Source: Yuukianura sp. NJ FZ-2021 (taxonomy: Eukaryota). Taken from it: DNA of 64,000 bases. The stretch is taken from positions 1,922,001 to 1,986,000 of the forward strand of contig CM102284.1 in NCBI GenBank assembly GCA_046563655.1, written 5' to 3'. Below, piece after piece: positions 10,625 to 56,553 of the stretch. Below the pieces are notes generated by a model. The model saw only the letters and a program-made list of their open reading frames with translations. It had not been told where the DNA came from and made no database searches. Numbering within the stretch: position 1 is the first letter of the stretch; each line of letters begins with the position of its first letter. Both the position numbers and the translations under genes were made by a program.

Positions 10625-11894
10625 ATGTTCGCAAAAATGAAAAAGTTGAAACCCCAAAAACTACTTTTACTTTTTGGAATTTCCTTTTCACTGTACATTT
10701 TTATAAAATTTGGACCGAAAAAGTTATTTGAACTTCAAAATCAACAAATTTCGACCAACGATATGCTGACAAAAATTCGGAAAAGTCCATGTCAATTGCT
10801 TAGCTTTAATTTGAGGTATACATTTTGAAATTCAACAGAAAACTAAACTTTTAAATTTTTTTGAAACAATTTTTGAAACTTTCAGCTTTCCAGAAAACCC
10901 GGAAACAGACATCGCCATTTCGCTCAGTGCTCGTCAAAATTCAAAACGTTGTGTCAAACGGCTCGCGCCTAACGTTCCTTCACTAACGGCCGAATGTCGT
11001 GACCGGCTTGGAAATCAAATGTTTTCTTACGCCACTCTGTATGCCATTGCACACTACAATCAGCGTCAAGCCCACATGTCTCCCCTCATGTCCACATATA
11101 TTTCAAAATACTTCCAAGTATCTTTAGCCACTTTGGATGAAATCACTTACAAAAACACTAGTTGGATAACCAGAAACCTTCCAGCCAAAGTCCAGAACAG
11201 CATTCGTCACCTTCCCAAAAAGGCGCCAAATGGATCTCCCTCCAGAATCAAATTCTGCTGCTTCCCCCAAGCATGGCGCTATTTTCATGACCTCCGACCT
11301 CAAATTCTCACAGAATTTAAATTTCATCCAGAAATACAATTCCATGCTGTTCACGAATTGGCTAGAGCAAAACAAAAGTTTTATTCAAACTTACCCGCCA
11401 GTCAAGTGACGTTCATTGGAGTCCATGTCCGAAGAGGTGACTATGTCAGGGAACAACAGCTGAGAAGATGTAGGCTACCAACAGTAGAGTATTATAAGAG
11501 TGCCATGGCCTATATAGGTCACAAGGTCATTAACCCCGTGTTCGTTGTGGCCAGTGACGACATTGGCTGGTGCCAAAAAACGTTTGTCGATCGTCACTCA
11601 TCATCGTTATCACTAGGTGACAAATTTCGGATCCACTTTTTGGAGGGAATTGACAAGCATAGAAGTGATGCTGGTTGGGACATGGCCGTCCTGTCGTCTT
11701 GTGACCACGTCATTTTTGGTTTGGGCACTTTTGGATTTTGGGCGGGATATTTGAATCCAGGAGAAGTAGTGTACTGTGATGACTGTATTCCGAAGGACTC
11801 CGTTTGGATGAAAGCCCGAGCCATCTATGCTGGGAATTACGGTAACTTTGTACTTCCTAGTTGGAAAGGAATCCACTGGAACGGAACTGGCTAA
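10625..11894 (+). CDS. Alpha-1,2-fucosyltransferase (GT11), copy 2
   Basis: Exons 10625-10815 and 10886-11894, with the same intron position and phase as copy 1. Motifs RLGNQMF, GVHVRRGDY, VASDD and GTFGFWAGYL. Confidence 0.92.
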
Positions 11895-26934: not shown

Positions 26935-29900
26935 ATGGCCAATTCATCGTCAGTGTCCAAAATGTCAAAGTGCAAAAAGGTCAGAAGATACCTTCCTGCA
27001 TTAGTTGCTTGGTTTCTACTTTTGTCTATCACCTCACTCTTCTACGCGTTTCCGTAAGTACAAACTAAGTCATTCACATGAAAAATAGAATCATTCAATT
27101 GACGTGCTTTGTATTTTTAAAGGGCTGTTTGGTTATACCATGAGTACTCAATTTGGATACTCGTCGGTGAAGCGGTTCTCACCGTCATTGTCATTGCCAT
27201 GTTCTCTTTGGCCACTTTCATGGATCCAGGCATAATTCCCAAAGGTTCATATGAGTCTGCTGTTGCTGATGCAGTCGAAGCGATTACTTTCTAATTCCAA
27301 TTTTTGTCTTATCTTGATCTTTATGTTTGGTTAGCTCCTCCAGGGGAAGATAACAATGATGACCTTACTGCTCCGCTCTACGTTACAGCTGATGTACGCG
27401 GCATCTCAGTTCGAATGAAATGGTGCATCACTTGTCAGTTCTATCGTCCGCCACGATGTTCCCATTGTAGCATTTGTGACCATTGCATTGAGGTATTGCC
27501 AAATTCAAAACCCATATTCCGTAATGATTGTTTTATGACTCAGAAGCAATTAATTTTCTTTCCTTTGTATTTGATTCCAATAGACCTTTGATCACCACTG
27601 TCCATGGTAAGTTTAGCGTCAATTGTTTTCCGTGAGTGTAAAATTGGAGGGAGGAGCTCAGCCTCTACTTACTTTTCATTTTACCTGTTTTAGGGTGAAT
27701 AACTGTATTGGACGTAGGAACTACAGATACTTTTTTGGATTTCTCATGTCATTGTCTCTTCATATGATGTTCGTGTTCAGTCTCTGCTTGATATTCATTC
27801 TGCATCACACAGATCGGATATCACACTTGTCAGATCATCGAATATTCATCACGTAATTTTTCATCTTTTTATGCATTTGCCTTATTCTGCCCCGATCCTT
27901 CCTTTTATTAGTAAATCCAACGTTACACTCTCTTGATTTAGGATCTTCATTATGGTTCTGGATGCTATACTCTGGTTTCCTGTCTTTGGATTGGCCATTT
28001 TTCATGTCGTGCTTGTATCACGCGGAAGGACGACTAACGAACAAGTCACAGGAAAATACGCAGGAGGTTTCAACCCATACTCGAAAGGTTGTTTTTCCAA
28101 CTGCTACTTCACGCTCTGCTTCCAGCCGTATCCTTTGTAAGTATTTTCAGTAAAAACGTTATGTAAACAAAAAAGAACGTCGCATACACAAAACTTCGTT
28201 TTGTTTATATTGAGTGTTAGTGTTATGGTCTGAAAATTGTTTAAATCTCAGGCTTTTGAAGAACAGCAAGACAAAGGCACTGTCTCAGGACATGACAGTT
28301 GTTTATCAAGCTTCTGCTGCTAGTCATCCGGATGGTGGGTCAAAGGGCAAGAATTATCACCCTGCTACTCCTATGTCGGCTGCTGGAAATCAGGTAAAGC
28401 TTTACGTGGACAATGGGCCGTCCAGAACAAATTCGAAATCCAGAAACGTTGGGCTCCCCACACTCCACTCTCCCAGAGACTATCGGCCGGTGAGTTCCGC
28501 AGGCATTTCCAATTTTATTTTCTTTCTGTTTTCATCTTTGTTTGGTGGTGGTGGAACTCTTGCTGGGTTTGGGGCTTTCCGTTTCGGTAACTCGCTTTAA
28601 AATGTACATAAGTTTAACTAACTTCTCTGTGATCTGTTTAGTTTAGTGATAAAGTTGGAGTCTGATCCACGTCTTAAGCTAAAACATGCGGAGAATACAT
28701 TCTACCAAGTGCCTTAGAGAATCAGTGAACAGCGACTGACGTTTCCGTATTTAGAACTTAGATTCTAACTTTTTCGTCCACGACGATATTGCTTTGGATT
28801 TCGGGAAAAATTAATTTCGGGATTGCTAGATTTTGTATTGTTTTTGGGGAGTAGAGCTGCTGGGGAAGTGGTGTAACTTTTTGCTTTTGATTTGTGTTCT
28901 GGAAATCAGTTTTAAAAAAAAATTGAAAAACGGTTTTTAAACGTTCTGTTTCTTTAATCTTTAACATGTTTAGATGATGCCGCTAAGAGACAACGGAGGG
29001 AGCGGTGACCACCATGACGTTGAGCTTGGACTTCAATCTTCTCAAAGTTTGGACTGTGAAGGACCACAGTCTGAAACCAGTTTTTTCATGATGCCAAAAA
29101 ATCACTTCCCACATGGATCCCCACATCCCAATCGACAAACGTACGTTTGAAATTACGCTCTCTTCTCTGTCTCTCTCTTTCACTCAACAAACTTAATGGA
29201 TTCCAAATTGCGTACACACAGTATTTAGTTCAAATTGTTATAACTTTACTTTATCGTGCTACTTTACGCAAACATTTTTTGTTTTTGCTGCTTTGAGAAT
29301 CATTTGTTGCACTTTTAAGACCAATACGTATTAAACCCTTCGAGGAAAACAGCGCCAACGAACCGGTTTTTCTTCATTTTGCATTTTTCTTTCGGTGGTC
29401 ATAGTTTGTCTTTTAATTGGCCAATTTAATTAGGAACTGCATGTTTAATTGTTTTCTTTTAATTAACTTAAGTGTAATTCCAATTAATTAATCGTGAATT
29501 GTTGTCCTGTTTCGTCTTATCTAGTAAGGAATCTCATGATCAAGGAACTTCAATGCAACAGCGAATTAGAGCCATCGGAGGAGTTCCGACTCCATTCACA
29601 ACCGTAACTCCAACCAGCCCAAAACACACGTCTTACTCAAATCCGAATCAAGTTTTGGCGCGAAATTATGTTCAAAATCAACAACAACATGATGGGGGTG
29701 GGTACAATGGAGGTGACAGTCGTGATTCTGCAACGTTGTACCCCGAATCTCAACTCTACGCCCATCAACAACCTGGAATTCACAAGGACTCGTCAGTGCG
29801 CATTCTCCAACTGGCCAGTTCTCCTCAACGCGGAGCCTATCAATGGGCTGAACCTTCTCCCGCCACATGTCCGAGTGACATGCCACCCCACTATCACCAC

Positions 29901-30227
29901 CCACCTCCACCCCAACATTTGAATACGACGCTACGCAGTGTCAACAACACAACTACTCCAGAGATGGTGTTACATCGGAATGTATACGGTGGACATCCGA
30001 GTGACATGCAGCAACATCCAGGAGGTTTACGACAAACAGTAATTCAGCAACAGCAGCAGCGACCAGTTGATTTTGTTAGAGCACTGGAGATGTCCGAAGC
30101 AGCAGATAATTACAACGGAGGGGAACGCCTAAGGCGGTACCACAATCGACCAAGCGCTTCGGGATCGCCCGGAGACAATCGGGACTTGGCCAGTGTGTAT
30201 GACATGAACTACGAAATTTCAGTTTGA
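26935..30227 (+). CDS. ZDHHC8: Palmitoyltransferase, ZDHHC5/8 type
   Basis: RRYLPALVAWFLLL, MDPGIIP, VRMKWCITCQFYRPPRCSHCSICDHCIE|TFDHHCPW|VNNCIGRRNYRYFF and GRTTNEQVTGK. C-terminal YEISV PDZ-binding motif. Exons between 28500 and 29520 are uncertain. Confidence 0.93.
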
Positions 30228-31274: not shown

Positions 31275-34117
31275 ATGGCGTCGAGCTATGTTTACGCCGT
31301 TGTGTTGGCAGTATTGGTCAATTGCGCATGGGCAACGAATGTTCACCCGCTAGATCCATTAACTCCAACAGAGATTCAACAGTGTTCACAGATTATTCAA
31401 AAGTCTCAAGCGACCTCTACTGGTTGGAACTTCATTTGGGTTACGCTGCTGGAACCAGAGAAAAAGATTTTGTTTCCGCTCCTTCTGCGCGAAGATACAT
31501 CTGGATTTGGACGTATTCCGAGACGCTGCTTGGTGGTCATCATTGAACGGAATACTGGACGTGTGTTTGAAGGGCGCGTAAATTTGAATTCAAATCGAGT
31601 TGAAGCCTGGGATCAACAACCTGCTGGAACACAACCGCTTTATGCTCCAGACGAATTGAGAGCTGCCGAACGCATTTTTCGGAACGACTCGGCTGTTAGG
31701 GAGAGATGTGCGAAACTGGGATATCGAAATATGGAAAGTGTCGCTGGAGAACCATGGTAAGTTTTTAAAATTTTGAATTGCTGTTCATGATTTTTAAATT
31801 TTTGGACTTTTACAATTTTGAAATAATTTTAGGGCTATTGGATACATTGGTGATCGGAAAGAATGGGTCGGGCGACGTCTGTTACAAGTTTTTCCATACG
31901 GATTGAACTCTCCCGATGACAATCAATTCGTTCATCCGTTTGATTTCATTGGAATTGTCGACGTCATACAAGAGCGCGTGATTCAAATTGAAGATTTACC
32001 GGTTCATCATCAATTTTATCCGAAGAAAGGAAATCCAGGAGTTACCGTGCCCAGAAGAGAAGCAAATTATGACCAAGCTCTTCTTCGCGCCAACTCTTCA
32101 CAGTCATCACGAGTCCAAGGTCAACGGGGTCACCAAAAATGGACGACGATTTCGCAACAAGGGCGCGGAGATTCCCGCTCTGTTGAGAAACTGGAGCCGA
32201 CGGCTTCGCAGCAAGGGCGCGGAGATTCCCGATATGTTCAAAAACCACGTCCGGCATATACGCCTGTTTACGCGCCACTGCCGCAAGCAACGCAATTTTC
32301 ACCAGCATACCAATTCCCTCCGTTTCAACAACCGTTTTACCGATTCAAACGGGAACCCCGGCAATCTTTCGCGCCAAAAATTCCTCCTCAAGGAAACTCT
32401 TTCGCGCCAAACATTCTTTCTCAACGGAATTCTTTGGCGCCTCAAATTTCTCTGCAAGGAAATTCTTTGAGATGGGAGAATTTTCGAGTTCAAATTGGCT
32501 TCAATGCCAGAGAAGGCCTAGTTTTGCATAACATTCGATTTCAAGATGGCGCGAAGTTGCGACCCCTAATTTACCGGATGTCGATTGTGGAAATGCTGGT
32601 ACCGTATGCCGATCCGAGACCTCCGTTTCATCGAAAAGCGGTTTACGATACAGGAGAATACGGTATGGGATTTTGGGTGAATTCGCTCCAACCTGGAGTG
32701 GATTGCACTCCGACAGCAGTGTTTGGGCATGCCGCACTGAATGATATACGTGGAGGAGGAGCTACGCGCCAAAACGTTTTTTGTGCGTATGAAGAGGAAA
32801 CGGGACTACTTTTTAAACATACAAATCTCCGTAATAACAGAGTAACATACGCGAGGAATCGTAGACTGGTTATTTCCAGTATCTCAACGGTGGGAAATTA
32901 CGACTATGCTTTTTATTGGATATTTTCATTGGATGGAAGTATTGAGTTTACGGTAAAGGCTACTGGGCTACTGGATACAGAACTGCTAGCTGAAAGGGAA
33001 GCTACGTTTGGTTATGGAATTGAAATTTTCCCGCAAATTAATACTCCGTTTCATCAGCATCATTTTGTAGCAAGGGTAGATCCGATGGTAGATGGCGCTG
33101 TGAACTCTGTAGCCGTTGTGGACATCGTCCAGGACAGTGCTGAAACAGGCTCCAAACAGAATCCTTACGGTAAAAAGATTTTTTAGTTGAAACGGTTGCG
33201 GTAAGGATAAAAAATCGTCAGTGTAGCCGCACAGTGTTGCCAAGTTGTGGCTACATCATATGGCTACAGAAGCAATCCTTAATCCTTACGTCAACCGAAG
33301 TTTGTCCAATAGTTATGGTTGAGGTAGACTCGAGTAATTATCATTGTTGCGTGTTGCCACATAGTGTAGCCACCAGCAAACATTGTGTTGTGGCTATGTG
33401 GTTACTCTAAGGTGGCAACTTTTACTTAGGTTACTGTTGGCTGGACTAGCATGGCAGCATATAGGTTGACAAACAGTGTTGCCATCCGCAGGGATAAAGT
33501 GGCAACACTGGTGTTTAGATTGCGTCAACTTATCCTTACTTCAAACCAAATTAATCAACTTTTGATTTAATTGAGCGTATTTTAACTTACTTAAGTTCAC
33601 TTTTTTTGTAGGTCAAGCATTTGCAGCTAAACGGAAGACACTTGAAACTGTTGCCGAAGGCTGCACGCGGATTGATCCACTCAAAGGCCGAACTTGGGAC
33701 ATTTTTACCAACGAAGTTCATCCAAATACGAAAGAAAAACGTTCCTGGCGATTCATTCCAAGAAATACTCCACCAATTCTCATGCGTCGTGACAGTCCAC
33801 TGTTTCCAAAAGCGGGATTTTCAAATTACGACATTTGGGTCACCGAGTACAAAGACCAAGAACTGTACCCCGGTGGATTCTACCTCAACGGAAGAGGGAG
33901 CCTCCCAGAAATTGTTAAGCGGAATCCACATGCGAGTGTCAAGGACAAAGACGTTGTACTTTGGCATGTTTTCGGCTTGACGCATATGCCACGCGCAGAA
34001 GAGTTTCCGATCATGCCCATTGAAGAAACTGGGTTCGTTCTTAGACCGCATAACTTCTTTGCACAGAATCCCGCTCTCAACTACGGTACAAGCTTTACTT
34101 TACCCCAAGCACCGTGA
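31275..34117 (+). CDS. Secreted copper/TPQ amine oxidase, fungal/bacterial type
   Basis: Exons 31275-31756, 31833-33169 and 33612-34117 join in frame. Signal peptide, HPLDPLT, catalytic Asp in AVYDTGEYG, TPQ site TVGNYDY, and Cu ligands HQH and THMPRAEEFPIMP. Confidence 0.95.
33232..33510. mobile_element. MITE-like insertion in amine oxidase intron 2
   Basis: Ends cagtgttgcca and tggcaacactg, with internal tgtggctaca/tgtagcc sub-repeats. No clear TSD. Confidence 0.5.
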
Positions 34118-34732: not shown

Positions 34733-37331
34733 TTATACTCCTAAGATTTCTCTAGGCGACGACGTATCTCTTTTTGGATCCGCTTCAGTATTTTCATTGC
34801 ACTGTCGCTGTTGATGTCGCTTGAGTCCCCCCATTCTGCGAAACTTTTGTGGACAGAGATGGCAGACAAACTTGCGCTCAGCGTGGACCATCGTAATGTG
34901 AACCTTGAGACTCTTTTCATTCTTAAAATCCTTCGGACACTTTGGACATTTATGACGCAATTCACACTGTGCAAGATGCGTTTTCATGGTGGCCCTAAAA
35001 TGACAAAATACACTATTCATTCAATTGTTTCTTTTTTCAAAGGTTGAATTCAAAGGTGTAAATTATTTAAAACTTACGTGTCTGAAAACACTTTTGCACA
35101 TCGCCGACATGGAACTGCATTTGGACCAGGTCCGTGGTGGACATGCTGAGACTCTGTTTGCTGAGCACCTTGTCGCTCAAGTAAGCGCATGCGCAATTTT
35201 TCCATTCTATGTCCTTGCGACAAGTGGACTTGGAACTCCGAATGCTCCAAGAAAGTGGCGTTACAAATGTTGCAGAAGAAGTTCATTTGGCAAGAGCTTC
35301 TTTGAGTGTCATTCGGGATTTGAGCATATCCAACAGTAACTCGCGACGGGGGCGGAGCTTGTTGGCGTTGTGTGTTAGATTGATACTGCGTTGTTCCATC
35401 GTGGGGAACCGCTTGATTCAATAAAGTTCTCAGAAAATCTTCCCAAGTACTATCAGCATTTGATGATACTTGCGGGAGCGGAAGTGACTGATTGAGAGAT
35501 TCATTAGGTGGTCCAGTGGAAACAACCTGAAATTGTCCGTCTTGATACTGAAGCTGCTGCACACGTACTGGCATTGACGTCATTCCTCCAATATTGATGT
35601 TGTTGCTATGAGATGATTGTAGTGGATGATGTACGCATTGACTTTGGTCTGAACTTGGTCGGTATTGCTCTTGTAATGGTTGTATGAAATTGGGATAGTG
35701 CTGACGTATTTCATGTGCATGATATTGAGATTGTAAGACACATCCGCCAAAGGGCATCGGACTTAACCCTGAAGATGGACGGTATGATCCGAGATGGAGT
35801 TGGTCATAGTTACTAGGCAAAACAATTGGTGTTGTTACTGATGCTTGTGGCGGTGTAGTATGCTGTGGAGCAAGAAATAAAGCTGAACTGTCTAGAGCAG
35901 ACTGAAACGTAGTAAGATGAAGAGGCAATCGTGACGCCAGGATGCCATCCACGATAGAATCCATAATTGGATTCCTGGCCGTGTCTGTGTTTTGAATCTG
36001 ATTAAGCATCTGACGAGTTGGAACACAGTGATTGTCCAAGTGATCACCCAATGTTTCCGAATTTGGAAATGATATCTGACAGAAGTAGCATCTCAAACAT
36101 GTTTCTGGTGAGAACAGCGGTTCGTCTGGCGATTGGAGTTCGATTGGGTTATTTGAACATTGTGGATTGGTATGGGCGATATGGGTTGAAGGAGGGAGTA
36201 TTTCTTCTGCAATTTGCAACGGCGTGTGCGTCCGTAGCGCATGGTCAGCCATAACATGCGATACATCTTGTTGAGGCTGACTACCTGCTTCAGTAGTGCC
36301 TGCTTGGTCCAGATTCTGGAGGCGCGGTTGAACACGAGCTGTCGGTGGAAGGAAGATCACATCGGGCGTTTGAATGACTGGAATCCTCTGGCAAGTAACA
36401 AAAGGCTCTTCACCGGTAACGGAAACGTTTGTCACCTTTGGTGTCACATCACCTTTTTCTTCCTTTCCAACGGTGATGGCCAAATCGTTTGGAAGAGGAA
36501 GTCCTTGGAGACGCTTACTAATCAGAGAAGACGTATCGCCAATATTAGAACCAATTATTTGAACTTTGCCTTCTTCTTTTTGGTCTTGCGACGTCTCTTT
36601 GTCGTTGTTGATATGTATCGGAACTGGAAGAACTTGTTCTTCATCAGCATCATAGTTACTGCGACATTCCTTCAAATGTGACTTGAGCAATCCAGATTTT
36701 GGAAATTGTGAGGAACATCGAAAGCACGTGAACACAATCCCCACCCCTTCTTTGTACTCCATTAGCGAATGAGTCCTAAACAAGTTCAGATGTATTGAAA
36801 CACGTTAAATCATAATTAACTGAACGTAGTCAAGTAAGAATTTAAGAATTAAGGTTACTTTGAACATCCGAGTTTGTGACAAAGAAGACAAGCCTTGGAG
36901 TTAGTGGAGCTGGCATTCTCCCTGGGTTTTTCTTGGACGGAAGTGCTCGAAGTTGCTTCCAATCTGTTAAGTAGAACGATAGGCTGCAAAAACTTGACTT
37001 CATATTTCTGAACACAATGTTCCAGAGGTGACAGCTGTATTCTCGGAAGATAGAGCTTGGAGCAGTGCTCTGGCAGCAACTGATTAATACCATGCATTCT
37101 AAAATTCCAAATACGAGATGATTAGGTAGTACACAAAAAACAGGGACTTGAGCCAAAGGTATGAATGACATGGACAAGGTACCTTGAGTTAATTTCAAAT
37201 AGAGGCACTGTGCATTTGTCCGTAGTAATGTCGTCATTGCCTTCATTGTCGTGGTTGGCTTTGTGAATGAGAAACTTAAATTCGTCCTGGATAAGGACTT
37301 GACAGCGGTCACATTGAAACCAGGCGGCCAT
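34733..37331 (-). CDS. C2H2 zinc-finger protein with dispersed fingers and a Q/P-rich region, multi-exon
   Basis: Fingers CDRC..H..H, CFRC, CYFC, CNIC, CRRC, CPKC and CHLC across ORFs 37122-37340, 36855-37097, 35074-36783 and 34733-35020. The start is uncertain. Confidence 0.8.
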
Positions 37332-38067: not shown

Positions 38068-39749
38068 ATGTTTTGTCAGCGTCTGGTGTCTCATATAATT
38101 CGAAACAGCAATGTATCAACGCCGCTGAAAAAGTCAACGAGATATGTTCTGCTTCCAATTCGTACATCATCAACAAATCCAGGAATCAATCCCGTATTCA
38201 ACAATGTTCTTAAGCAGACAGAAAACATTCAGGCTCAGCATAGTAATGCAAGGCGATACGTCGGAGGTTGGCTGCTTGGATGTTCCGGAATGGTTGTTGG
38301 GGCGGTCATTTTAGGTACTAAGTCAATTAACACTCAATTATTTATGATGATGTTACTTTATACATGACGCTTCAGGTGGTGTCACACGTTTGACGGAGTC
38401 TGGATTGTCAATGGTTACTTGGAAACTTTTTGGAGAACGTCCACCGTTCAACCAATCGGATTGGGAGACTGAATTTAGCAAGTACAAGTTGCACCCAGAA
38501 TTCAAGATGTAAGGCAGAATTACAATGATGAAATTCCCCTTGAACTTAAATACTAATTTCCATGTTTCATTTCATTACTAGAAAAAACAGTGAAATGACG
38601 TTAGCAGAATTCAAGAAGATCTGGTGGATGGAGTATGGACATCGTACGTGGGGTAGACTCATTGGTGCAGCCTATTACATTCCAGCAGCAATTTTCTGGT
38701 ACAAGGGCTGGTTCGACAAAGGGATGAAGATCAGAGTCGGCGCGATGGGTGGACTGCTTGCTTTTCAAGTAATCATAAACTTAATGCATTTGCATACACA
38801 CATTTCATATAGAGGTGTGATCAATGTTTTTACAAAGAGTAGGGTCTCTTAGGATGGTACATGGTAAAGTCAGGACTGGAAGACAGATTTCACGGACCAA
38901 GTGACGTTCCTCGAGTATCACAGTATCGATTGGCAGCACATTTGGGTTCTGCCTTTGTTCTCTACTCACTTCTCTTCCGGTCAACCTTGGCAACCTTGTT
39001 CCCCGAACCCTTAATGTCCGAGCTGAAGGGAACAATTGCTTTACGTCGTTTCAAAATGCTGGCTCACTCATCCAAGGGGCTCGTATTCTTCACGGCTGTT
39101 TCCGGTGAGTTCTGGCCTCAACAAATTTGGTATTTTTCTCTATTTTGGAAGTTCAATACTTTCAATAAAATTTTTTTTTCTTATGTCCCGTCCCACCAAA
39201 GGTGCTTTTGTGGCTGGGCTTGATGCAGGACTTGTGTACAACTCTTTTCCGAAAATGGGCGATAGGTGGATCCCAGAAGACATTCTATCCTTTCGTCCTC
39301 TGATGTCCAACTTCACGGAAAATCCTACTACGGTCCAGTTCTGTCATCGTTTGCTGGTTTGTGCACAAAATGAATGATAACTTCGCTAGTTCCCTAGAGT
39401 TGGTTTATACGCGGTGATGTTTTGCAGGGTATTACAACCGCTTCAACTATTGCCGCTCTTTGGATGGCTAGTAGAAAACTGAACCTTCCAAGACCTGCTC
39501 GATTGGCAACAAATTTAGTTGCAGCAGCGGTGATATTACAGGCAAGTCGTGTTGTTTACATTTTAAATCACATGAGTAACTACCTGTCCTAAACTTCATT
39601 TCGAGCACTTCTTGCAGGTCACATTAGGAATCACAACTCTGTTGACCTATGTTCCAACTGAACTCGCGGCTATGCATCAAAGTGGATCGCTTTTTCTGTT
39701 ATCGGCGGCACTCTGGCTCACTCATGAACTAAAGAGGATACCGAAATGA
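38068..39749 (+). CDS. COX15: Heme A synthase COX15
   Basis: Mitochondrial presequence, [68 protein letters not shown] and LAAMHQSG. Confidence 0.96.
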
Positions 39750-43356: not shown

Positions 43357-45327
43357 ACGTCTCGCTTTTATCCAAATTTGATCTGTACAACAAAAATTGA
43401 AATTAACACACATTCCAAATTCAAAATCAAATCACACTATGAAACTACGTTGTTTAAGTTATGTTAGGTTGAATAGTTTAGGCTAAAGATAGTTAGGTTA
43501 GTATGTCTAAATTCAAGGTAGGTTTTCGTATAAGCGGATCACATATGAAAGAAAAATGTTCTTATTAGTCTTTGCAATATGGCACTAGAGCTGTTTCAGG
43601 AATTCCGGTATATAAATTTTAAAATCTTCAAAAATTTTGAACAATTTTGAACAATGCAATCCATAATTTAAAAAAAAACTTCGTATGCACAAATGTAAAA
43701 AAAAGAAAGAAAGAAAGCTATGCCGCAAACCTGGATTTGTACTCAGCCGTAACTTTCAGACATCTAATTTGTTTTGGATATTTTTTTTTAAAAGCATTTT
43801 TACTTAAGTATTCTTCTATAAATTGATTTTAAGTTGTCCATGAGTTTGAAAATTCATAAATCAATTAATCCTTCATTGATCACAGAAAAATTGGTCGTTA
43901 GTTGTCTGTCTACCTGAACAATAAAAGCGCTCAAACCACCACCCCAACGACCTCGCTTTTTCCTGTTTTCGAAATAATTTGAAGTGAGACAATAAAATAT
44001 TATTTTATGTAAATAATTTTATGTAAAATAATGACACGACCTTTAAAATCCAAATCAAATCGAGAAAAACAAAATAATTAAAAGGGTTTAGAGGAAAGCA
44101 GGAATTGGATTTTTATTTTGTTGATCCAAATTCATAATTGGGCCAGTTAAACTCCTTTCAACTCAACTTTCTGCAAGGTTAACTTTTGTTTCCAAAGGTC
44201 AATTTTTATGGTAATAAAAGACGTAATTTAAAATTGTGAAAAAAGTAATTAAAAACGATCGATCTTGACCTTAACAATTCACGCAGTGTCAAAAACAACT
44301 AATCATACAAAACACAATGACTTTAGTTTTACTAGTCATCGTTTGTAATTTAGGTTTTTTTTTCCGCCATACTTCGAAAACTGGATCTTTTAATTTCAAA
44401 GTTTCACACAAAATGAAAAAGGCATAATTTTATTTACCATTGTAAGGGGCTTGAAAATATTAAAAGCGAGTTAAATTCAAATTGTATACAATTAAATTAA
44501 TTGGAACAAAAAACAAATAAGTTATTACAACTAATTCTTTAATTACTAGGTGCAGCTTAACAGTGAAGAGTGGAATAGCCGGAGGGCATTTTGACCTGGT
44601 GCCAGTTACGACACCTTTAGCCATGCGTTATTAATGGAGTTGATTCTCAATTCAGTTCTTATTTGGATTTGATACAAAAAAGTGAGAAATAGTAGATGCT
44701 GTGATGTGATTGATTTGGTATTTAAAATTCAGAGTACAATTGACTACAATGTACAACACTACTAACCTTGCATCACTTCAACTCTTCATTTTCCCAGTTG
44801 CAAAACACTGTGTAAAACTGAATGTGATTCTTTTTATAGGTATGTAATACCAAATGAGAATGCGGCCAAACAAAAAAAAATGAAAAAAATGTCAATTAAA
44901 TATTTAGGGTTCTGTAAACTCAAACAATTTGCATGTTCCATTAAAAACTTCCGTGACGGTAGCTAATTTATGACGATAGCAGTACTTAAACTGGAAAATG
45001 TCCCTTTGAATATGCTAGATAAGCCATTCTATTGATTTAAGCCATATGGATTTGCTCTACATTATATTCATAATCCCACATCATCAAAGTTATAGTTCAG
45101 TTTCTTTAGATTTTGATCTGTTTTTGTTTAATAACTTTTGAAACATCGGGTTTCTGATAAAAAACATGCACTGACAGCGCTTCCTAAAGTTCCTACTTTA
45201 AAAACAGCACGGAAGTTTACTTACTTTACTGTAAAGATTCATAGCTTACGGTTTAAATAACTCTGACTCTCCTTGGCCGTAGTCTCAACTTGTTTCTGTT
45301 TGTGTGGTCTATTATATTGCTGGGGCA

Positions 45328-47445
45328 ATGTTCAAAACAATTGTAGCTATACTTGTGATTGTTCAAACACATTTACCTTGTGAGGGATTTGTGTTTACCT
45401 CGTTTGCAGTAGGGGGTTTTGAAAACTGTTACATGTTAGTATTTGAATTTCAGGAAAATTTGGCTTTGTTTCCAGCAAAAAATTTCCGCCAGCCCGTAAC
45501 TCTATTTAATCGCCATACCGAAGTATCTGATATTACAAGTCTAAAACGTAAGACTAACGACAGTTTTGGAGAATTAAGACGGCTATGGCCATTTGTGAAG
45601 CAGACTTGCCTATTGTACTATTTGGTGGAACCGAAGTACCGCGGGGATGTCGCTCGAGGTCAATCTGACATTCACGAAATCCTAATATGTCACTCAGTAA
45701 TTATTCGTCCATACTGTTACGGATCCCACACATATATGGTTGTACTGTTCTCGAATATGACTAAAATTGAGTCTTTGCAAAATAAGTATTGGCATTTGCC
45801 GCTTTTTGTAGTAAACTTTCAACCAAATTTGCCAACTCCAACTTCATTTTTGGTTGAGATTGTTCATCCTTGTCATCGAACAATTCGCATGAGTGTTCAA
45901 AATTTGCAAGCATTGGAGGAACATGGACTGCGCAACGTACTAGAACAACTCCACCAGAAGCTGCTTTTTAGTGCATGCCATATCGAGTGGATTGTGAATT
46001 GTCCAATGTCGCCTGAAATCACATTTAACGACGAAAACCTGCTACTCGGACTACGCGTAATTAAAAAGCCGACCTATCAAGCGCACACTCAAATCATTAA
46101 GAACCTCATTGCAAATTTCGACAAGTCCAGTGTGGGGAAAGATGCCCAAAACGAAAACAAAACTATTTTGGCTGGTCAACTTTTTTCAAACCAAGTTACA
46201 TCTGAGGAATGTCAGTTTAGGCCCAAATCCTTTCCACGCACATTTCCAGTCCGCCCGTTTTCAGATTTCAAAATTCATATTGTTGGGATTAAAATTGACG
46301 TCGTCCCCAAAAAATCCGTCCTGAATTTGGCCGGAAGCCAACAAGACATGAACATTTATATTACTCGACAAGTTTCGTTCAACTTTATCAGCTGTGACGA
46401 GCACGTAAAATTTATATCATTTAACGCCCTTGCAGCTCCGTTTAAAAATGATGTGTGGTATACACTAGCAGCGGTGTATTCCATACTGACGATTCTATTG
46501 TTCGTGTATATGAACATTTCGAAATCAAAAGCAAGCGCCTTTTTCATAATGGCACAAATTTTGCTGGAACAGGGCGCAAAAGTGAGCCGGAAAGCTAATT
46601 TCTACAGGTCATACTATGGTTTAATGACTTTATGCTTACTAGGAGTTCTGACTGTGATAAACGCATACAAGGGAATACTTACTGCACGAGCAAGTGCGCC
46701 TCGATACACTCAGCAGCTACAGACGATACAAGAATCAGTGGAGCGCGGCCTTCAACTTCTAGTTGAAGTGAATGATAAGTCAAAGTTTTTTCGTCCCGAA
46801 CGAATTTCGAGCAACATGACATTTCGTGATAGGCGTCGGGTGGCCATCGAATTTGGCAAGAGAAGTCGATTTTATAACCTATTGCATGAAAACGCCAAAG
46901 TGGTATTATTTTTAGACGAAAAGCCGAAGGGAGTAATAAATCAAATACTTGAAAACACCGATCTAAAGTCCACTGTAAATTTCAACACCACTGAAAAACT
47001 GTTGGAATGCAACAAAACAATTTGGGTGGGTGAACAGGATGAGCTGGCAGAATTTCAGCGGCGGAGTGATGTGGTACAATATTTAAAAAACAACTCTGAG
47101 ATAGCTCAGAAATTCTACGTAGGCAAAGATAAATTTATGCCGCACTATGTAGGCTGGGTAGTTAGCCCCAACAAGTGGGATCGGCTACAAAAATTTCATT
47201 TCCGAATCCAACACTTTCTTCAATCAGGCTTAAAAACTCACTTGGAACAATTGGAAACTTTTTTGAATTTGACACGGAGCTTACGCCAAGAGACATTGAG
47301 AGTTTCTAGGAAAATAAAATTATCAATGGAACAAAATTTGGTAGTAGTGACATTTGCTTTGTACTCGGGGTTAATTTTACTCAGCATTCTGATTTTAGTT
47401 GAAGAGTTGGCACGAAATTATGTTACGAAATATTTTAATGCATGA
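45328..47445 (+). CDS. Divergent ionotropic receptor (IR), intronless
   Basis: Signal peptide, pre-M1 ALAAPFKNDVWYTL, pore ILLEQG, M2 INAYKGILTA and a C-terminal TM helix. Confidence 0.78.
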   Translation: MFKTIVAILVIVQTHLPCEGFVFTSFAVGGFENCYMLVFEFQENLALFPAKNFRQPVTLFNRHTEVSDITSLKRKTNDSFGELRRLWPFVKQTCLLYYLVEPKYRGDVARGQSDIHEILICHSVIIRPYCYGSHTYMVVLFSNMTKIESLQNKYWHLPLFVVNFQPNLPTPTSFLVEIVHPCHRTIRMSVQNLQALEEHGLRNVLEQLHQKLLFSACHIEWIVNCPMSPEITFNDENLLLGLRVIKKPTYQAHTQIIKNLIANFDKSSVGKDAQNENKTILAGQLFSNQVTSEECQFRPKSFPRTFPVRPFSDFKIHIVGIKIDVVPKKSVLNLAGSQQDMNIYITRQVSFNFISCDEHVKFISFNALAAPFKNDVWYTLAAVYSILTILLFVYMNISKSKASAFFIMAQILLEQGAKVSRKANFYRSYYGLMTLCLLGVLTVINAYKGILTARASAPRYTQQLQTIQESVERGLQLLVEVNDKSKFFRPERISSNMTFRDRRRVAIEFGKRSRFYNLLHENAKVVLFLDEKPKGVINQILENTDLKSTVNFNTTEKLLECNKTIWVGEQDELAEFQRRSDVVQYLKNNSEIAQKFYVGKDKFMPHYVGWVVSPNKWDRLQKFHFRIQHFLQSGLKTHLEQLETFLNLTRSLRQETLRVSRKIKLSMEQNLVVVTFALYSGLILLSILILVEELARNYVTKYFNA

Positions 47446-47935
47446 ATATCCTTGTGTTATTGGGTAAAAATTAATTCACATACAACAATTGAGGATCAGA
47501 ATATTTTCAACAAATTCTGTACCCCACAATTCAGTACCTCACAATTCTTGGACCCCCGGGGGTCTGGAGGATAGGGTGAACCGGCTGCGCTAAATTGCTT
47601 TACACATAGCAATAAATAATAATATAATAAGGCATATTTATATAATATAATATCGAAAGGAATATGTAATATAACTAAAAAGAAATTTCAATTACATTAG
47701 TATAGAAAGTCGCTCCTTCGTGTTAAGGGTGGGAGGAGCTCTAGAATCACGTAGTGAGCATAATAAAACAAAAAATTTTTTTTTGGAGTCTTAGACGGGG
47801 TTCTTATTACTTAAAGTTTCCAAACACGCGACACCTTTTCAGTATTAATTAATCTAAAAGCATCTGAAAAAGTGGGTAAAACCAACTAGCAAAAACTAAT
47901 ACTGAAGCAAATAGTTGGTTGAAATTTTCAGTAAA

Positions 47936-50550
47936 ATGGAATTCTTCAGTGTTTTGAATGTATTCGAGTACTGCTACCCCATTCTACTATGGAACATGGA
48001 GGACACTTCACCCACTACACTTTCATTTGCTAACTTCAAATTCCCAGTAACCACTGCAAATTTGAAACTGCGCAGTCCAGTGGCACGGAATATGCCAATT
48101 TTTCCAAAGTTAGGAAGATCCGATGACTGCCTGAGTGCGTTCTACATATCACCATTTTACCGTCTCTATGAAAAGAAGGAGAATAAGGCAACTGTGGATG
48201 GAGAATCCGTCAACATCTTGTACGGCATGAACGGAAAAACTGAATATTACAATATTTCATATTTTGGGGATTGGGATTGTGACGTTGGAGCTAAAATCTT
48301 AGGTTGGTGCCCTCAAGAAGTCTACAGCAGAAGTTACTTCAGTCATTCCATAGGATTTTACTATGTCGTAGCCATTCATACTGCGGAAGAATTAAGGACG
48401 ACGACCGTCCAAAACTTCGCCGTGATTAACATGGGTAGTCTTCGGCCCTTTGTTTCAGTCGTACTTACGCCAAATGGAACATCAACTTGCCTCACAATCA
48501 CTGATCCAAACAACGAAGCATTCTGTTCTGTGTCATGTGATTATCAAGTATTGCAAAAATGCTTTTCTAAATTGAAATTTGGAAAAAAAGCTATACCTGC
48601 TGGAATGCACTTGCCACAAAACATTACCGCTCCGTTGCAAAACTTGAGTGAAACGGATATTCGCCGTCAATCGTTGGCGTCCTATGCCGCGCACTCTCGA
48701 AACGTTTCGAAAATATTTTTTGGTAACGCGCAGTGCAGTAATCTTGTTGAAGAGGCGGATGGTACCATTGAAGAAAACATGCGTGAAACGTACCTAGCCG
48801 AGGCTGTGACGAATAAATTTTTGGCGAAAGAGCTTATTCGCGGTAAATTTAACGGCTCGTGGGCTATGTGTTACACAAAATTAGGTTACTCAACTCAAGA
48901 CTATGGACTGCGCATGTACGTTGCAGACAGTAGGAGGTTGTTTACTATAAGACCAGGGGCTTCAGCGGGCCATCTCTATCGTCCGGTTATTCTCAAGGGA
49001 TCGGCCAAGTACAGCTTCTCGTTTCTTGGTTGTTTGAGTCTCAATGGATCAGCTTCTGAACTCTCGTTTCGAGCGTTCGCGAAGCCGTTTGAATACGAAG
49101 TCTGGTGGAGCGTGTTGACCTTTCTTATTACACTGGTACTCTGCATGGCGCCTTTTTTCAAAATTTGGGAAATGCCGGATTCTGTTTCTGTTTTGGTTAT
49201 GAGATTCGTTTTGGAGCAGGGCCTTGTTCTCAGCAGCAAAGTTGAAAGGTCAAACCCATTCAGAATTTTTCTACTGGCAGTCCTTTTCGTTCTATTAGTT
49301 TTCATCAATGGATACAAAAGCTTGGTGACAACTAACATGTTGGCACCAAACCCCGTGCAAGAGGTGACGTCATTCGAACAGGCTGAGGAGCTGAACCTGT
49401 CGTACATGCCAAACGATTGGAATCTGGAAAGAACCTATCATACTACCACAGAGAGTGCTATTGATATTTTACGTATATTTTTCCCGCTTTTCGAAGCTTC
49501 CTACTGGAGGAACGAAACTTTTACGGATACAAAGTATTTGATTCTTTCAAATTTACTTCAAGATCTAATGTGTAGACACGGTTCCTATTTTACGAGAGGA
49601 GGCGATGATGCCCAAGTGAACTACGGCGAGTGGGAAATACGATCTCACACTGCGTATTTACTAAGAATGAAAAAGAATTTTACGCTGGAGGAAGTTTGCA
49701 TGGATTCAAGGTTGAATCTCAGTAGTCATTGGTAAGCTTTTACAATTTTTATCAAAATAAGTTGAACTTGTAACTCCTGCAAGTGAATTTAACTCTTTCA
49801 ATAGTATCATCAGCTTTAAAAGTCAAATGTAAAACATTTTCATCATTTTAAATTAAGAAAGCAAAATCTAAAAGCATTAACCAAATTCTTTGTAGGAAAA
49901 CGATCATGAGACGCCTGGTTCTCCCGAGCGACTTTATTCCTGGCAATGGGAGCTGTGTGCGGGAATTTTTGAAATGCAACGGAACAATGCTGATAGTGAC
50001 AGAACAAGGAATGAACAACCTCCACCTCCGCCTTCTAAATACATCACACGAAAGTCTACATATCTACAAACCAAATTTGGATCCAAATGCAACTTTGCAT
50101 GCTTCAAACAAGCACTACATGCTGTTGTTCAACGATGTATTTGACTACTACTACCTGATGCCTCGGATTCAAGGAATTCGAGATGGTGCCTTTATGTTGC
50201 ACTGGGAGAAAAATTTAGCGTGGTACAATAATACGCTGCTCTACAACAGAAAACTACATTGGTTACAGGTGGAAAGATTGCAGTACTGGAGAACCAAGCA
50301 GTACTTGACACTGTTACAAATAAGCACAGTATTTGTGATTATGGCAACATGTACAGCGGTGTCTATTGTGGCATTGGGGTGTGAAATCTCCATATACAAA
50401 GTCTGGCAGGCATGGATGTCCATTACCACTATAATTCAATCGTGTACAACTAAAGAAACTAAAGAAAAAAGGTTTGTAAGATATGTAAACCGTGTCATAT
50501 CGTTGCAATCTTCAACCGCCGGAACCCTGAATGCAACAAAAACGGTGTAA
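47936..50550 (+). CDS. Divergent ionotropic receptor (IR), 2 exons
   Basis: AFAKPFEYEVWWSV, FVLEQG and FINGYKSLVTTNML. Intron 49732-49895 joins the two ORFs in frame. Final TM helix ISTVFVIMATCTAVSIVALGCE. Confidence 0.78.
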
Positions 50551-51559
50551 ATTTTCTCCCGCTACTTTATATTTTTTATCGGATTAAGATTTAAATTTAA
50601 CTCGGTTCAAAATGAACAAGAAGGAGTTTGTTTTCTTTTGTCTTTTCATTCAGTTTTTTGTAATATTTTAAAGGGTGTTTAAATTTTTGTAATACAATAT
50701 TAGAAGCGAATTTTACCCAAAAACCTTGCCTATACCTAGCAATCGTTTATGCTGTGCGGCGCTAATATTTTGATGGATTCTATGAATAGTAATTTATCTC
50801 AAAGCGAAAATTTTATCCAAACTGAGCACACTTTGGAATGATGCAAGGACAAGGCTGCCAAAATGTCAACAAATTTTAACATCAATTTTCACAATCGACA
50901 TGCATTGCACAAAAAGTTTGCACAAGTTAAAAATAGGCTAAAAAAGTTAGATAAAAAATAGTAATCAAAAAAGTTCATAACATTTACCTTGACTTGTTAC
51001 ATTTTTGGAAAATTTTGAAATTTACATCGGGCTGAAGCTCATTTTTTTGAGCAGCTTTGTCTGTTGTTGAAATGCTTTCACCTTGAAAACTTTATTTGCA
51101 GAAAGAATTGAAAGTTAACAATTTTTCATTGAATAGTTCTTGTGTTTTCATGAGCCGATTACAGGTATAAAAGTAGCGTTTGAACTTAGTGGGTGGAATC
51201 TTCTGGTTTCGGTTGATTAAACGTTTTAACTTCGTATTGTCAAGTAACTTTGTCGTATTTTACAAAGGAAAATTCACAAAAGTAACAAAATTATTCGCTA
51301 ATTGGAGTTCGCTGTTACTTTGTATGTATTTTGTGCTTGTACTTAATGAGACAAAATATAAGAAAGGGAAGTTCATCCAAGCTCAACCACTTCACGCTAC
51401 ATTAATTTATGTCAGCTTTCAATTATTGTAATAAAAAAAGCCGGGACAAATTAGTTCTTACATTTGATATACTAACTTACGCTATTTAAATACGGTTTTA
51501 ACGCTTCGCTTTTTCATTCTTAAAAAACCCGCACTTATTAAACTTTGCAATCGTCCAGC

Positions 51560-53032
51560 ATGAAATCAACAGTCGAAAAATTCATTTTCTTTATCAAGTT
51601 GCAGCGAATTGCTGGAATTTTCCCGCTTCATTTTGTTTATGAAGTAACCAAGCCAGCCAAGACGTGGACGTCGCCTGAACCAATCACATCACCAGAAAAG
51701 CGGTTTTTAAAAGTTGAACTTGCTGGGAAAAAGTTTCAGTATTTTTCTTTTCTAGTTCCCGCTTTTGTCTTCATTCGTGCTTTCGCGTCGATTGCTTTTT
51801 TCCTTTCAAAAATGTCGAACAAAACCCAATCTCTGAAAACCGTTATGTGTGCTCTATTTGTCACCCATATAATTTCAACAATCTTTTTATTTCTTACGAT
51901 ACGAAGATATGCAAAACGCATGGTGACTTTTTTGAACAATTGGCACATTTTGGAAAAAGAAATCGGGAAATGCTGCGATGCAGGTATGCAATTGCAAGTC
52001 TTAAAATTATCATAAAAATTTTTCCATCGGTATTTTCAAATTTATTAAGAACTTGACTTTCTATACTTAGGTAGATTTTATATCTTGCAATATTCATTAT
52101 ACCAATACTATTTTTAATTCTGCGCTTTGCTGCTTTGTTAAAAAGATTTAGCCTCCGGGATGTATGCAACTGTACATTCGATCCATGCAAAACATAATGC
52201 GGGCATTTTCAAGTTACTATCTTACATTACTTTCATATTGCCGTTGGCCATGTTTATACGAAAGGTGGAATCAATACACGACATTCTTCATTCCTATTGG
52301 ATCCTTGGGTTTCAAACTTCACCTCCATCTGCTTTGACTGACGTCATTTACATCGTTACCTCCCTGGAAACTTTAGTATTTATGGAATTATTTTGGATTT
52401 CCGCGTCTACAATTGATCTCATATGTATCAGCTTTCCATTTAGTATCAACAGATGCCTAACTTCCCTAATTCGACTTTCTAATCAAATACAAACATTCAA
52501 CAACTCTGGTAAAGTAATTGTGGAAGACGGTCTAAAGTCAAGCTCGGTAAAAAAGCTCGTTCAATTGAACACCATAATCGGTCTGTACAAGAGAATTCTT
52601 GACATTACACGCTCTTTTAACAGAATGTTTTCTACTTATGTGTTTTATGGAATGTCTGGCATGCTATTTTTTATGTGTTATGCGATCTATGGCTTTACTC
52701 GATTTCGGGAAGGTGTTTCGGATGATACTTTATTATTTTGTGGCTTTGCTGTAATTGGATCAGGATTCCGGTTTTCGTTAATGATCATACTCATGGGTCG
52801 AGTGCACAACTCGTCAATGGCGTTGCAGAATGTCTGGAAGCAAGAGCTGTTGAACGAAAAGGATGATGAAATTTCTACCAACGTATTTCAGAAAAAAGTA
52901 GAAAGTTTGGCCCAAAATTTTACTCCTGTACAGTTCTGGAGTGGCGGTTGTTACGGTGTTTCTTCTTCAACCCTACTAACATTCCTGTCAGTTGTAGCTA
53001 CAAATAGTATTGTACTGCTGCAAATGTTTTAA
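51560..53032 (+). CDS. Gustatory-receptor-like 7TM protein, copy 1
   Basis: Exons 51560-51983 and 52152-53032 (phase 1). Hydrophobic helices and TM7 motif GCYGVSSSTLLTFLSVVATNSIVLLQMF. Confidence 0.85.
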
Positions 53033-53897
53033 AAAGTATTGAGCTTTAGCACGAGGTATGATAAGTTGCTATTGTTATTACGTATTTAGACATATAGGCA
53101 ATTAGACATAACACGTCACATATATACAACGTATACGCCGTTATTCAACGTACGTGAAGTGTTTATAGCATGCACGTGAAAGTGTAATCTATGTAGTTTG
53201 AAACTATTTATTTCTATGTAATGTACATAAATTTAGGCGCTGAATGTTTATACGTAGTACCTACAACGTAGTAACTAAATGCAAATGTAGAAAAATTTGT
53301 CAGACGATGAAAGTATAAATAAAGTTGCATAATATAAAAACATTAGCAATAGTTATAACGCCTTATGAGACAAATATGTACCACTTCTCTAGTGGAAGCG
53401 TTTTTACCTTAAAAATTTCATTTGCAGAAAAATACCAAAAAACTTATTAAAAGTAAACAACTTTCACAAACAATGACAATGACATATAAAATTTGGTTGT
53501 CCTTACTTTCACTAATTAAAATATTATACGAAACGAAAACAGTTTTGGGCTGGGCTGTGGTTTATGTGGATTCCGTTCAATAAAGTAAACGTTATCATTG
53601 TTATACGCGTTTGTTCGAAATTAAACAAAAGCGACAAAGTACTCAATTTTTTATAACTTAATTTTGTAATTGCTTTCAAAAAGTTTAGCAAGTTCTTTGG
53701 CGTTAATTGGACAAAACAAATTTAAGGAAACACCCCACGAGTTGACCCGCCCACAAAGCTGCTACAGTATTTTAAGCGCCTTCCTGTTCTAGCGAAGTTA
53801 ATTGTAGATTTGGCAGGCAAACACTTTTTCAAAACGGTTTTCAACTTTATTCATTTTTTAAAAACCTCTCGCTTAGAAAACGTGGAAATCAATCAAC

Positions 53898-55865: not shown

Positions 55866-56553
55866 ATGCGTCATTTTTTGTAACAACATAGTTAAGTACT
55901 ATAATAAACTTTTCACTAAGCAAAAGGATCAATAACATTTTAGTTATCAAAAAAGTTAGAGGCATATAATTTATTTTCAAATTTGTAATTAATTTGAGAA
56001 ATGTACATGGGGCTAAAGCTGACATGCTTTATTTGAGCTTCGTCTGTTATTTAAATGCTCTCACCTTGAGAACTTCATTGGTGGAGAGAATGGAGCTTAT
56101 TAAAAGTTAACATCTTTACACAATCGCACAGGATGTCTTTATGTGTCATATGCCGATTACATGTAAAAAAAAACATCAAAAGAAGCGTTTAACATTAGTG
56201 TGTTGATTATTCAGGTTCCGCTTGAATAAATTTTCAAACCTATGGGTTGTCAAGTAACTTATTTATGATGTCATTTACAAAAGAGATGAGAAGGTTAGCA
56301 AAATTAATTGAGTTTACTAATTTGTGTAATTACGTAGACAAAGTCAATTAAAAAAAGAAAACTTCACCCAAGCTCAACTGTTTCACGCTACATCTATTTA
56401 TGCCACCTTTCAATTATTGTAATAAAATTGCTGAGACAAATTAATTCTTACATTTGATAAACTATAGTTAGTTTGTTTAAAAACTGGTTTGAACACTTCA
56501 TTTTAGTCATTTTAAAAAAAGGTTGCGCTTAGAAAACTTTTCAATCGTCTAGC

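Follow-up and report, generated by a model that had tools for sequence, protein, structure and literature searches.

Copper amine oxidases (CuAOs) convert one of their own tyrosines to topaquinone in a self-processing reaction with Cu(II) and O2, and oxidize primary amines to aldehydes with the release of NH3 and H2O2. Here, a CuAO gene is described that lies at positions 31275-34117 of the plus strand in a 64,000-nt stretch of DNA from Yuukianura sp. NJ FZ-2021 (contig CM102284.1, positions 1,922,001 to 1,986,000), referred to as the window. All coordinates are positions within this window.

The best solved match for the second exon of this gene is HPAO-1, the peroxisomal enzyme of Ogataea (Hansenula) polymorpha (PDB 1a2v, 2oov, 3sx1). 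Both share the domain order N2-N3-catalytic domain, the Asp base, the NY(D/E)Y motif and the HxH pair with a further His, and the family of the window gene groups with the clade that holds P0148, a relative of HPAO-1. In contrast to HPAO-1, which has a short cytosolic N-terminus, the window protein carries a secretory-type leader and lacks a C-terminus resembling the peroxisomal targeting signal type 1 (PTS1). It is ~41-44% identical to the yeast-type sequences P0126 and P0148, and its gene contains an insert of ~115-140 residues and two spliceosomal introns and is located in an animal genome. The catalytic motifs are identical to those of AGAO, the phenylethylamine oxidase of Arthrobacter globiformis (PDB 1av4, 3wa2). 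AGAO, however, is bacterial and cytosolic, and the actinomycete sequences are separated from the family of the window gene by a branch with 98-99% support.

The known animal CuAOs (AOC1-4 and their relatives) play a part in inflammation, in the breakdown of histamine and in the chemistry of the matrix. AOC1-4 and the CAO-like enzymes (PDB 3hi7, 2c10, 1tu5) belong to the same superfamily and share the extracellular or cell-surface location that is predicted for the window protein, but the similarity reaches 51-65 bits only and the window gene is not of that lineage. According to the main text of a survey of 79 animal genomes, the CuAOs of animals, namely the CAO-like enzymes of cnidarians, molluscs and amphioxus together with AOC1-4, form one clade, and the words "arthropod" and "insect" do not occur in that main text (PMC12058724). 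For the shell-matrix CuAO of pearl oyster and oyster, its authors propose a modification of matrix proteins (PMC4660305, PMC5379566). This enzyme offers the nearest functional parallel to a secreted CuAO in an invertebrate; it is likened here by location and not by sequence type.

The locus is read here as a working nuclear animal gene for a CuAO of the fungal HPAO-1 type, with an ancient transfer into an ancestor of the animal lineage as its most likely origin (probability about 0.5). The gene is real and codes for a probably secreted enzyme, which adds a member to an established family in a host lineage where it was not expected.

Gene structure and catalytic residues

The gene consists of three exons. 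Their joining by script resulted in a coding sequence (CDS) of 2325 nt, which encodes 774 amino acids and contains zero internal stops. The gene limits given in a preliminary description of the window, 31275 and 34117, match the ATG and the TGA exactly.

31275-31756, plus strand: exon 1 with start codon, leader, N2 and the first part of N3; phase-2 end (..CCA TG)
31757-31832, plus strand: intron 1, 76 nt, GTAAGT..TTTTAG, GC content 0.18
31833-33169, plus strand: exon 2 with the remainder of N3, the disordered insert and the first 240 residues of the catalytic domain, as placed by Pfam and alignment to HPAO
33170-33611, plus strand: intron 2, 442 nt, GTAAAA..TGTAG, phase 1
33612-34117, plus strand: exon 3 with the final 168 residues of the catalytic domain, followed by the TGA stop; protein ends ..TLPQAP

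Intron 1 was assigned on the basis of canonical splice sites, an in-frame stop inside the intron and the restored PW-IGY motif. Its removal restores EPW-AIGY, which aligns with DPWAIA or DPWTIGY of homologues. Exon 2 ends in phase 1 within the Gly codon of the motif NPYG. On the plus strand, no AATAAA was found between the stop codon and position 35420.

Pfam searches identified Cu_amine_oxidN2 in exon 1 (E 1.6e-8), Cu_amine_oxidN3 in exon 2 (E 1.5e-4; 22.4 bits compared to a cut-off of 22.6) and Cu_amine_oxid in both exon 2 (E 3.9e-82) and exon 3 (E 6.7e-39). The N3 match aligns to HPAO residues 144-194, and the two catalytic pieces meet at profile positions 247/250. The order of N2, N3 and catalytic beta-sandwich is the layout of copper/topaquinone amine oxidases (PF01179 with PF02727 and PF02728; EC 1.4.3.21/22).

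The catalytic residues were placed by alignment to the solved HPAO and AGAO chains and by motif positions:

32647-32649, plus strand: codon of Asp433, catalytic base in YDTGEYG, aligned with the D in the HPAO sequence "aldiGEYG"
32899-32901, plus strand: codon of Tyr517, topaquinone precursor in NYDY (residues 516-519)
33052-33060, plus strand: His568-Gln-His570, two copper ligands
33983-33985, plus strand: codon of His731, third copper ligand; GLTH aligned to AGAO GLTH

The N, Y and Y of NYDY as well as the HQH motif are invariant across the alignments A1-A3. The complete catalytic set that had been described before (Asp base, NYDY, HQH and a further His) was recovered with all residues present, and an active topaquinone amine oxidase is predicted from them.

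Transcription and integration into the host genome

Contigs of four runs were aligned to the window between 27500 and 39500. In this region, contigs of run X4 skip at least 10 GT..AG introns across three genes; four of these introns belong to the DHHC gene upstream and five to the COX15 gene downstream. Because GT..AG introns are spliced out, X4 is taken to be an RNA library made from the same sample. Record 19 of X4 (1502 nt) joins 32158-33168 to 33611-34098 with intron 2 removed, so that the earlier description of an intron-bearing, spliced gene is borne out by the joint between exon 2 and exon 3.

Intron 2 contains a repeat:

33196-33544, strand not assigned: repeat resembling a miniature inverted-repeat transposable element (MITE) with 15-nt inverted arms at 33196-33210 and 33530-33544

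The contig depth of this repeat was 1279 in X1 (compared to ~250), 214 in X2 (compared to ~60) and 102 in X5 (compared to ~6), and loose contig ends were found at 33194-33242. This ~5-fold or higher depth together with the loose ends fits a multi-copy MITE-like element; a second copy was not found within the 64-kb window. Without the element, intron 2 would have a length of ~90 nt, which is similar to the neighbouring introns.

The codon usage of the gene corresponds to that of its surroundings. The GC content at third codon positions (GC3) is 0.392 compared to 0.400 for 15 neighbouring open reading frames (ORFs), and the relative synonymous codon usage (RSCU) correlates with that of the neighbours at 0.70, while values of 0.48-0.71 were determined for the neighbours among themselves. 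The view that composition gives no sign of a recent arrival holds for both measures.

The CuAO gene physically belongs to the host genome, as is evident from its introns, the host repeat, the flanking animal genes and the run of a second organism. A contaminant or an assembly artefact, in which a fungal gene was misjoined to animal sequence, has next to no probability. No single short contig links the gene to both neighbours, and nothing else specific points to a misjoin. Contigs of X1 and X2, on the other hand, cover all 30 depth bins (30/30) and tile into both intergenic regions, and the repeat in intron 2 is multi-copy in the same runs. All three exons, intron 2 and both flanks are also present in X5, the run of the second organism, with ~2-7% differing letters per listed piece. 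The codon use shared with the neighbours and the identity of only 49% to the best fungal match (120 listed of 525 matches) likewise speak against a misjoined fungal gene.

Apart from this, single X1 contigs skip 312 nt (32662-32975) and 692 nt (33101-33794) without GT..AG ends. Their depth is 74 and 69 compared to ~230. Copies with deletions, a decayed paralogue at another place in the genome or artefacts may explain them.

Similarity to known amine oxidases

The search of exon 2 against solved structures resulted in the following scores:

HPAO-1: 228 bits
AGAO: 214 bits
3loy (second solved "copper amine oxidase"): 167 bits
E. coli enzyme: 117 bits
Pea enzyme: 110 bits
Pichia lysyl oxidase: 72 bits
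Human VAP-1 (AOC3): 65 bits
Bovine enzyme: 61 bits
Human DAO: 51 bits

For exon 3, AGAO was the best match (107 bits) and HPAO-1 reached 97 bits; apart from this, the structures rank as for exon 2. The assignment to the HPAO/AGAO type rather than to the vertebrate AOC enzymes, as made in the preliminary description, is in agreement with these values (228 and 214 bits vs 65, 61 and 51 bits for exon 2).

In an index of 5.8 billion proteins, 525 matches were found. The best of the 120 listed matches was a protein of Phascolomyces articulosus (Mucoromycota) with 49% identity, followed by planctomycete, acidobacterial and other entries at 43-49%; no animal-named protein was among these 120. An exhaustive search of a representative library of 1.84 billion proteins gave 2974 matches. 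Six clusters among the best 150 of these representatives belong to the family of the window gene. One of them, P0123 (175 aa), is 65% identical, and its ORF stops at NPYG, which is the same exon end as in the window gene. The 80 prokaryote loci that were kept are 42-50% identical and come from at least 10 phyla. No longer forms and only 7 weak fragments as shorter forms were identified, and no fusion was seen, which is weak evidence. The protein-cluster search gave generic CuAO clusters only (plant, ascomycete, chordate and actinomycete).

Phylogenetic position

For the phylogenetic analysis, proteins shorter than 560 aa (except P0123) and 9 locus ORFs shorter than 560 aa were dropped, resulting in 264 sequences that were analyzed using FastTree. 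IQ-TREE was applied to 72 hand-picked sequences under LG+C20 with posterior mean site frequencies (PMSF) and to 45 sequences under LG+G4 with bootstraps. The trees of both programs agree on the placement described below.

Together with L081, a relative encoded on a metagenome contig of 2128 nt, with P0123 and with a sister group comprising P0125, P0140, P0186, L086 and P0127, the window gene makes up one small, intron-bearing family (support 99 to 100/100). This family joins 12 HPAO-1-like or Mucoromycota sequences; among them are P0148, which matches HPAO-1 with 1239 bits, and the two proteins of Phascolomyces. The support for this grouping is 93 with 72 sequences and 97/93 with 45 sequences. 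A further 11 fungal-type sequences adjoin, among them P0175 (nearest solved structure 3loy, 514 bits). As judged from its sequence, the CuAO gene is of eukaryotic, fungal type.

A bacterial donor, for instance a planctomycete, would be consistent with the bacterial matches of 42-50% identity, which make up 80/80 kept loci and the majority of the 120 listed proteins. It is nevertheless very improbable. All 24 named bacterial sequences (24/24) are separated from the family by a branch with 98-99% support, and in the approximately unbiased (AU) test a tree in which the family was held with 12 named bacteria was rejected (delta lnL, the loss of log-likelihood, 30.9; p 0.012). In addition, a three-residue stretch before NPYG is common to the family and the fungal sequences and is absent in the aligned bacteria. 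From the "microbial" origin suggested in the preliminary description, the fungal-type part is retained, whereas the bacterial part has to be dropped on account of the branch with 98-99% support and the AU test (p 0.012).

Common features of the family are a Gln after NPYG, a short FYLNG-type loop and a DSPL motif. L081 contains a 425-nt phase-1 intron at the same NPYG Gly codon as intron 2. In L086 (metagenome contig, positions 19-1409), which is closest to P0186 (56%), introns are located after ..RKA and ..PVMPVE, whereas NPYG is uninterrupted; the introns thus differ between the two branches of the family. The sequences of P0140, P0186 and L086 end or are spliced after ..PxMPxE. The identity between the two subclades is 35-44%. 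L081 and L086 originate from the same metagenome, which hints that one organism may carry both types.

The catalytic residues are complete in L081, P0125, P0140 and P0186, and in P0123 over the part covered. In the full-length P0127, NYDY is changed to HSDY and HQH to NQY, by which the cofactor Tyr and the HxH pair are lost. P0127 is a probable catalytically dead paralogue.

Origin of the gene

In the scenario considered most likely, a gene of fungal type would have been transferred once in ancient times; it would then have acquired introns, its product would have been retargeted and the gene duplicated. Its more specific form is proposed tentatively: an ancient transfer from a fungus to an arthropod may have founded a family of secreted CuAOs, in which introns were gained independently in two branches, the peroxisomal address was lost, a fast-evolving disordered linker arose and one paralogue became inactive.

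A number of observations limit this reading of the locus and its origin. The trees were calculated without any AOC-type or invertebrate CAO-like sequence. The label "fungal-type" follows the organism name for P0001 and P0003 only, and for P0148 and P0175 it follows their PDB matches to yeast enzymes. The AU tests were performed under LG+G4 with 42-45 hand-picked sequences and with groups that were named after the tree had been seen. When the 23 fungal-type sequences were kept together with the family outside, this topology was not rejected (p-AU 0.216 with 42 sequences and 0.131 with 45 sequences), and therefore the nesting of the family within the fungi is not significant. The host is an animal, probably an arthropod, and the arthropod assignment is drawn from the 7tm_7 matches in the window alone. 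Regarding transcription, the identification of X4 as RNA is taken from its joints, while the label of the run reads "DNA?". Record 19 differs from the window at 46 of ~1500 aligned letters and therefore represents another allele or copy. The proposed splice junctions were found in part: the joint of intron 2 is present in X4, whereas no contig spanning the junction of intron 1 was among the matches listed for the four runs.

The placement outside the 23 fungal-type sequences would also be expected under vertical descent with losses. In this case the opisthokont ancestor had an HPAO-type enzyme beside the AOC/lysyl-oxidase type; fungi kept it and most animals lost it, while a few invertebrate lineages, including that of the window gene, kept and retargeted it. 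Such an origin is possible but doubtful. It would agree with the depth of the family (35-44% identity between subclades with differing intron positions), with the fully host-like codon use and with the existence of invertebrate CuAOs, some of them extracellular, such as the enzyme of the pearl-oyster shell matrix (PMC4660305). Free trees, however, place the family beside the HPAO-1-like group of fungal paralogues and not beside the other (93; 97/93), and no more than six clusters of the family occur in the top 150 of the 2974 matching representatives. Vertical descent would also call for numerous independent losses, and the main text of the 79-genome survey describes a single animal clade of CuAOs (PMC12058724). 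If descent was vertical nonetheless, animals would ancestrally have had two CuAO lineages, which goes beyond the published animal tree.

With regard to the old horizontal transfer that was originally suggested, the age was supported. The transfer itself is plausible from the tree (93; 97/93), yet it has to be set against the outside placement with p-AU values of 0.216 and 0.131.

Aphids, spider mites and gall midges are known to have obtained carotenoid synthase/desaturase genes from fungi. If the transfer reading is right, the window gene would resemble them as a metabolic gene of fungal type that acquired introns, adopted the codon usage of its host and was then duplicated. The fungal nesting of the carotenoid genes is well supported, whereas that of the window gene is not significant. 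A literature search found no report of such a gene or transfer in arthropods; the gene lists of a 2022 survey of horizontal gene transfer in insects (Cell) may bear on this. A crab amine oxidase found in the literature is a flavin amine oxidase and was rejected as a CuAO.

If the transfer reading is true, the gene would represent a further case of a foreign gene that gained introns, a signal peptide and paralogues, and the extracellular conversion of amines to aldehydes and H2O2 would be a chemistry not reported for arthropods.

Secretory leader and proposed mechanism

The N-terminus of the predicted protein is hydrophobic:

31275-31334, plus strand: leader of 20 residues, MASSYVYAVVLAVLVNCAWA, followed by TN

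The Kyte-Doolittle mean over 11 residues reaches up to 2.69, and Ala is found at positions -3 and -1. The HPLDPL start of the homologues comes directly after the leader, which is absent from the fungal sequences; P0125 likewise has a hydrophobic leader. The signal peptide that was noted before is consistent with the hydrophobic leader and its Ala residues at -3 and -1, whereas secretion remains a prediction: by hydropathy and the -3/-1 rule, the protein probably enters the secretory pathway and is secreted. The C-terminus (..TLPQAP) is not PTS1-like, while the fungal-type sequences in many cases end in tripeptides of the type ..KL or ..NL. Since a peroxisomal-type C-terminus was exchanged for a leader, the chemistry would have moved outside the cell.

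The protein would enter the secretory pathway via the 20-residue leader and then dimerise. His568, His570 and His731 would bind Cu(II), and Tyr517 would be converted by the enzyme itself to topaquinone with Cu(II) and O2. With Asp433 as the base, primary amines would be oxidized to aldehydes, and NH3 and H2O2 would be released extracellularly. If conserved, expressed and secreted, the enzyme would be a new extracellular source of oxidants and aldehydes in such an animal. Possible roles are a matter of speculation and include the cross-linking of cuticle or matrix, wound defence and the removal of dietary amines.

Disordered insert

Between N3 and the catalytic domain, the protein contains a linker of ~115-140 residues of low complexity, which is rich in P, Q, R and S. 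The following features were identified:

32092-32433, plus strand: core of the insert, exon-2 residues 87-200, predicted disordered
32365-32468, plus strand: tandem repeat of 33 nt x 3.2, Tandem Repeats Finder (TRF) score 124

A structure model of exon 2 was built from an alignment of 24 sequences, with a mean predicted local distance difference test (pLDDT) value of 66.8 and values of 80-96 in the catalytic part. In this model, residues 87-200 have a pLDDT below 50 and are predicted to form no secondary structure.

The insert holds two 18-aa units, each with the motif GRGDS (RGD codons at 32164-32172 and 32218-32226). The 33-nt repeat encodes the 11-aa units SFAPKIPPQGN, SFAPNILSQRN and SLAPQISLQGN; in the alignment, the last unit falls on the strand with which the catalytic domain of homologues begins. 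An RGD motif is also present in human VAP-1. The insert is missing from 12 aligned homologues. L081 contains an in-frame insert that is shorter and 44% identical, with neither the RGD motif nor the 11-aa repeats. These elements are therefore recent and probably not essential. On the sequences compared, the disordered, repeat-built insert is specific to the lineage of the window gene.

The insert was also considered as an unrecognised intron. This was ruled out, since it is in frame, is partly contained in the spliced contig (X4 record 19 retains at least 32158-32460) and has an in-frame counterpart in L081.

In X1 and X2, contigs of about half depth join 32246 back to 32144 with 5 letters in between. 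This suggests an in-frame extra copy of the GRGDS repeat of 108 nt (36 codons) in the other haplotype, or may be an artefact of the assembly graph.

Selection and age

The catalytic part of exon 2 is 78% identical to L081, and the identity over residues 381-774 is 75%. Between the window gene and L081, the proportion of non-synonymous differences (pN) is 0.13-0.18 and that of synonymous differences (pS) 0.74-0.83, which is saturated. The low pN together with the saturated pS indicates that the gene is old and under purifying selection. The old age proposed earlier is consistent with these saturated synonymous sites and with the presence of intron 2 in L081.

Variants in the CDS were examined for the 12 best-supported entries, while 872 further entries exist for the 12-kb stretch. 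In the regions of N2, N3 and the catalytic domain, all listed variants are synonymous (6/6). The one listed leader variant is non-synonymous, as are 4/5 of the insert variants (1/5 synonymous).

The gene might be intact and have lost its function as an amine oxidase, acting for instance as a structural or adhesive matrix protein via its insert. The loss of the cofactor Tyr and of the HxH pair in the family member P0127 and the two GRGDS motifs of the insert would be in line with such a role. This is unlikely, however, since all catalytic residues are kept in the window gene, in L081, P0125, P0140 and P0186, and in the covered part of P0123, the listed variants in N2, N3 and the catalytic regions are exclusively synonymous (6/6), and L081, the relative with 78% identity, has neither RGD motifs nor 11-aa repeats.

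Neighbouring genes

The position of the CuAO gene among ordinary animal genes was confirmed, as genes for a DHHC protein, a C2H2 zinc-finger protein and COX15 adjoin. The upstream gene, which had been named ZDHHC8, was identified as DHHC only.

27121-30227, plus strand: DHHC palmitoyltransferase gene upstream of the CuAO gene, encoding a long Q/P-rich tail; three exon ORFs match Pfam DHHC (27.3-28.1 kb)
34733-36804, minus strand: C2H2 zinc-finger gene, downstream neighbour
38312-39427, plus strand: COX15 gene (part), Pfam COX15-CtaA at 38.8-39.4 kb; five short introns spliced in X4
51542-63124, plus strand: five genes of the 7tm_7 gustatory-receptor type in tandem, each with two exons
52142-53032, 54948-55865, 57151-58047, 59506-60447 and 62228-63124, plus strand: C-terminal exons of the 7tm_7 genes

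Besides the five 7tm_7 gustatory-receptor-like genes, for two of which Pfam was tested (7tm_7, E 8e-10 and 2e-9), further neighbours encode an arrestin, an OTU protein, a P450 and two proteins of glycosyltransferase family 11 (GT11).

No Rfam match at the gathering threshold was found in the window (0 matches). Two long single-exon ORFs are located on the plus strand at 45283-47445 (720 aa) and 47915-49735 (606 aa). At E 0.001, Pfam matched neither of them; for the 720-aa ORF, this also held at E 0.1. The two GT11 genes (alpha-1,2-fucosyltransferase type) consist of a single exon each and are found on the plus strand at 6059-7090 and 10815-11894 (Pfam E 8e-40 and 1e-40), with the P450 gene between them on the opposite strand.

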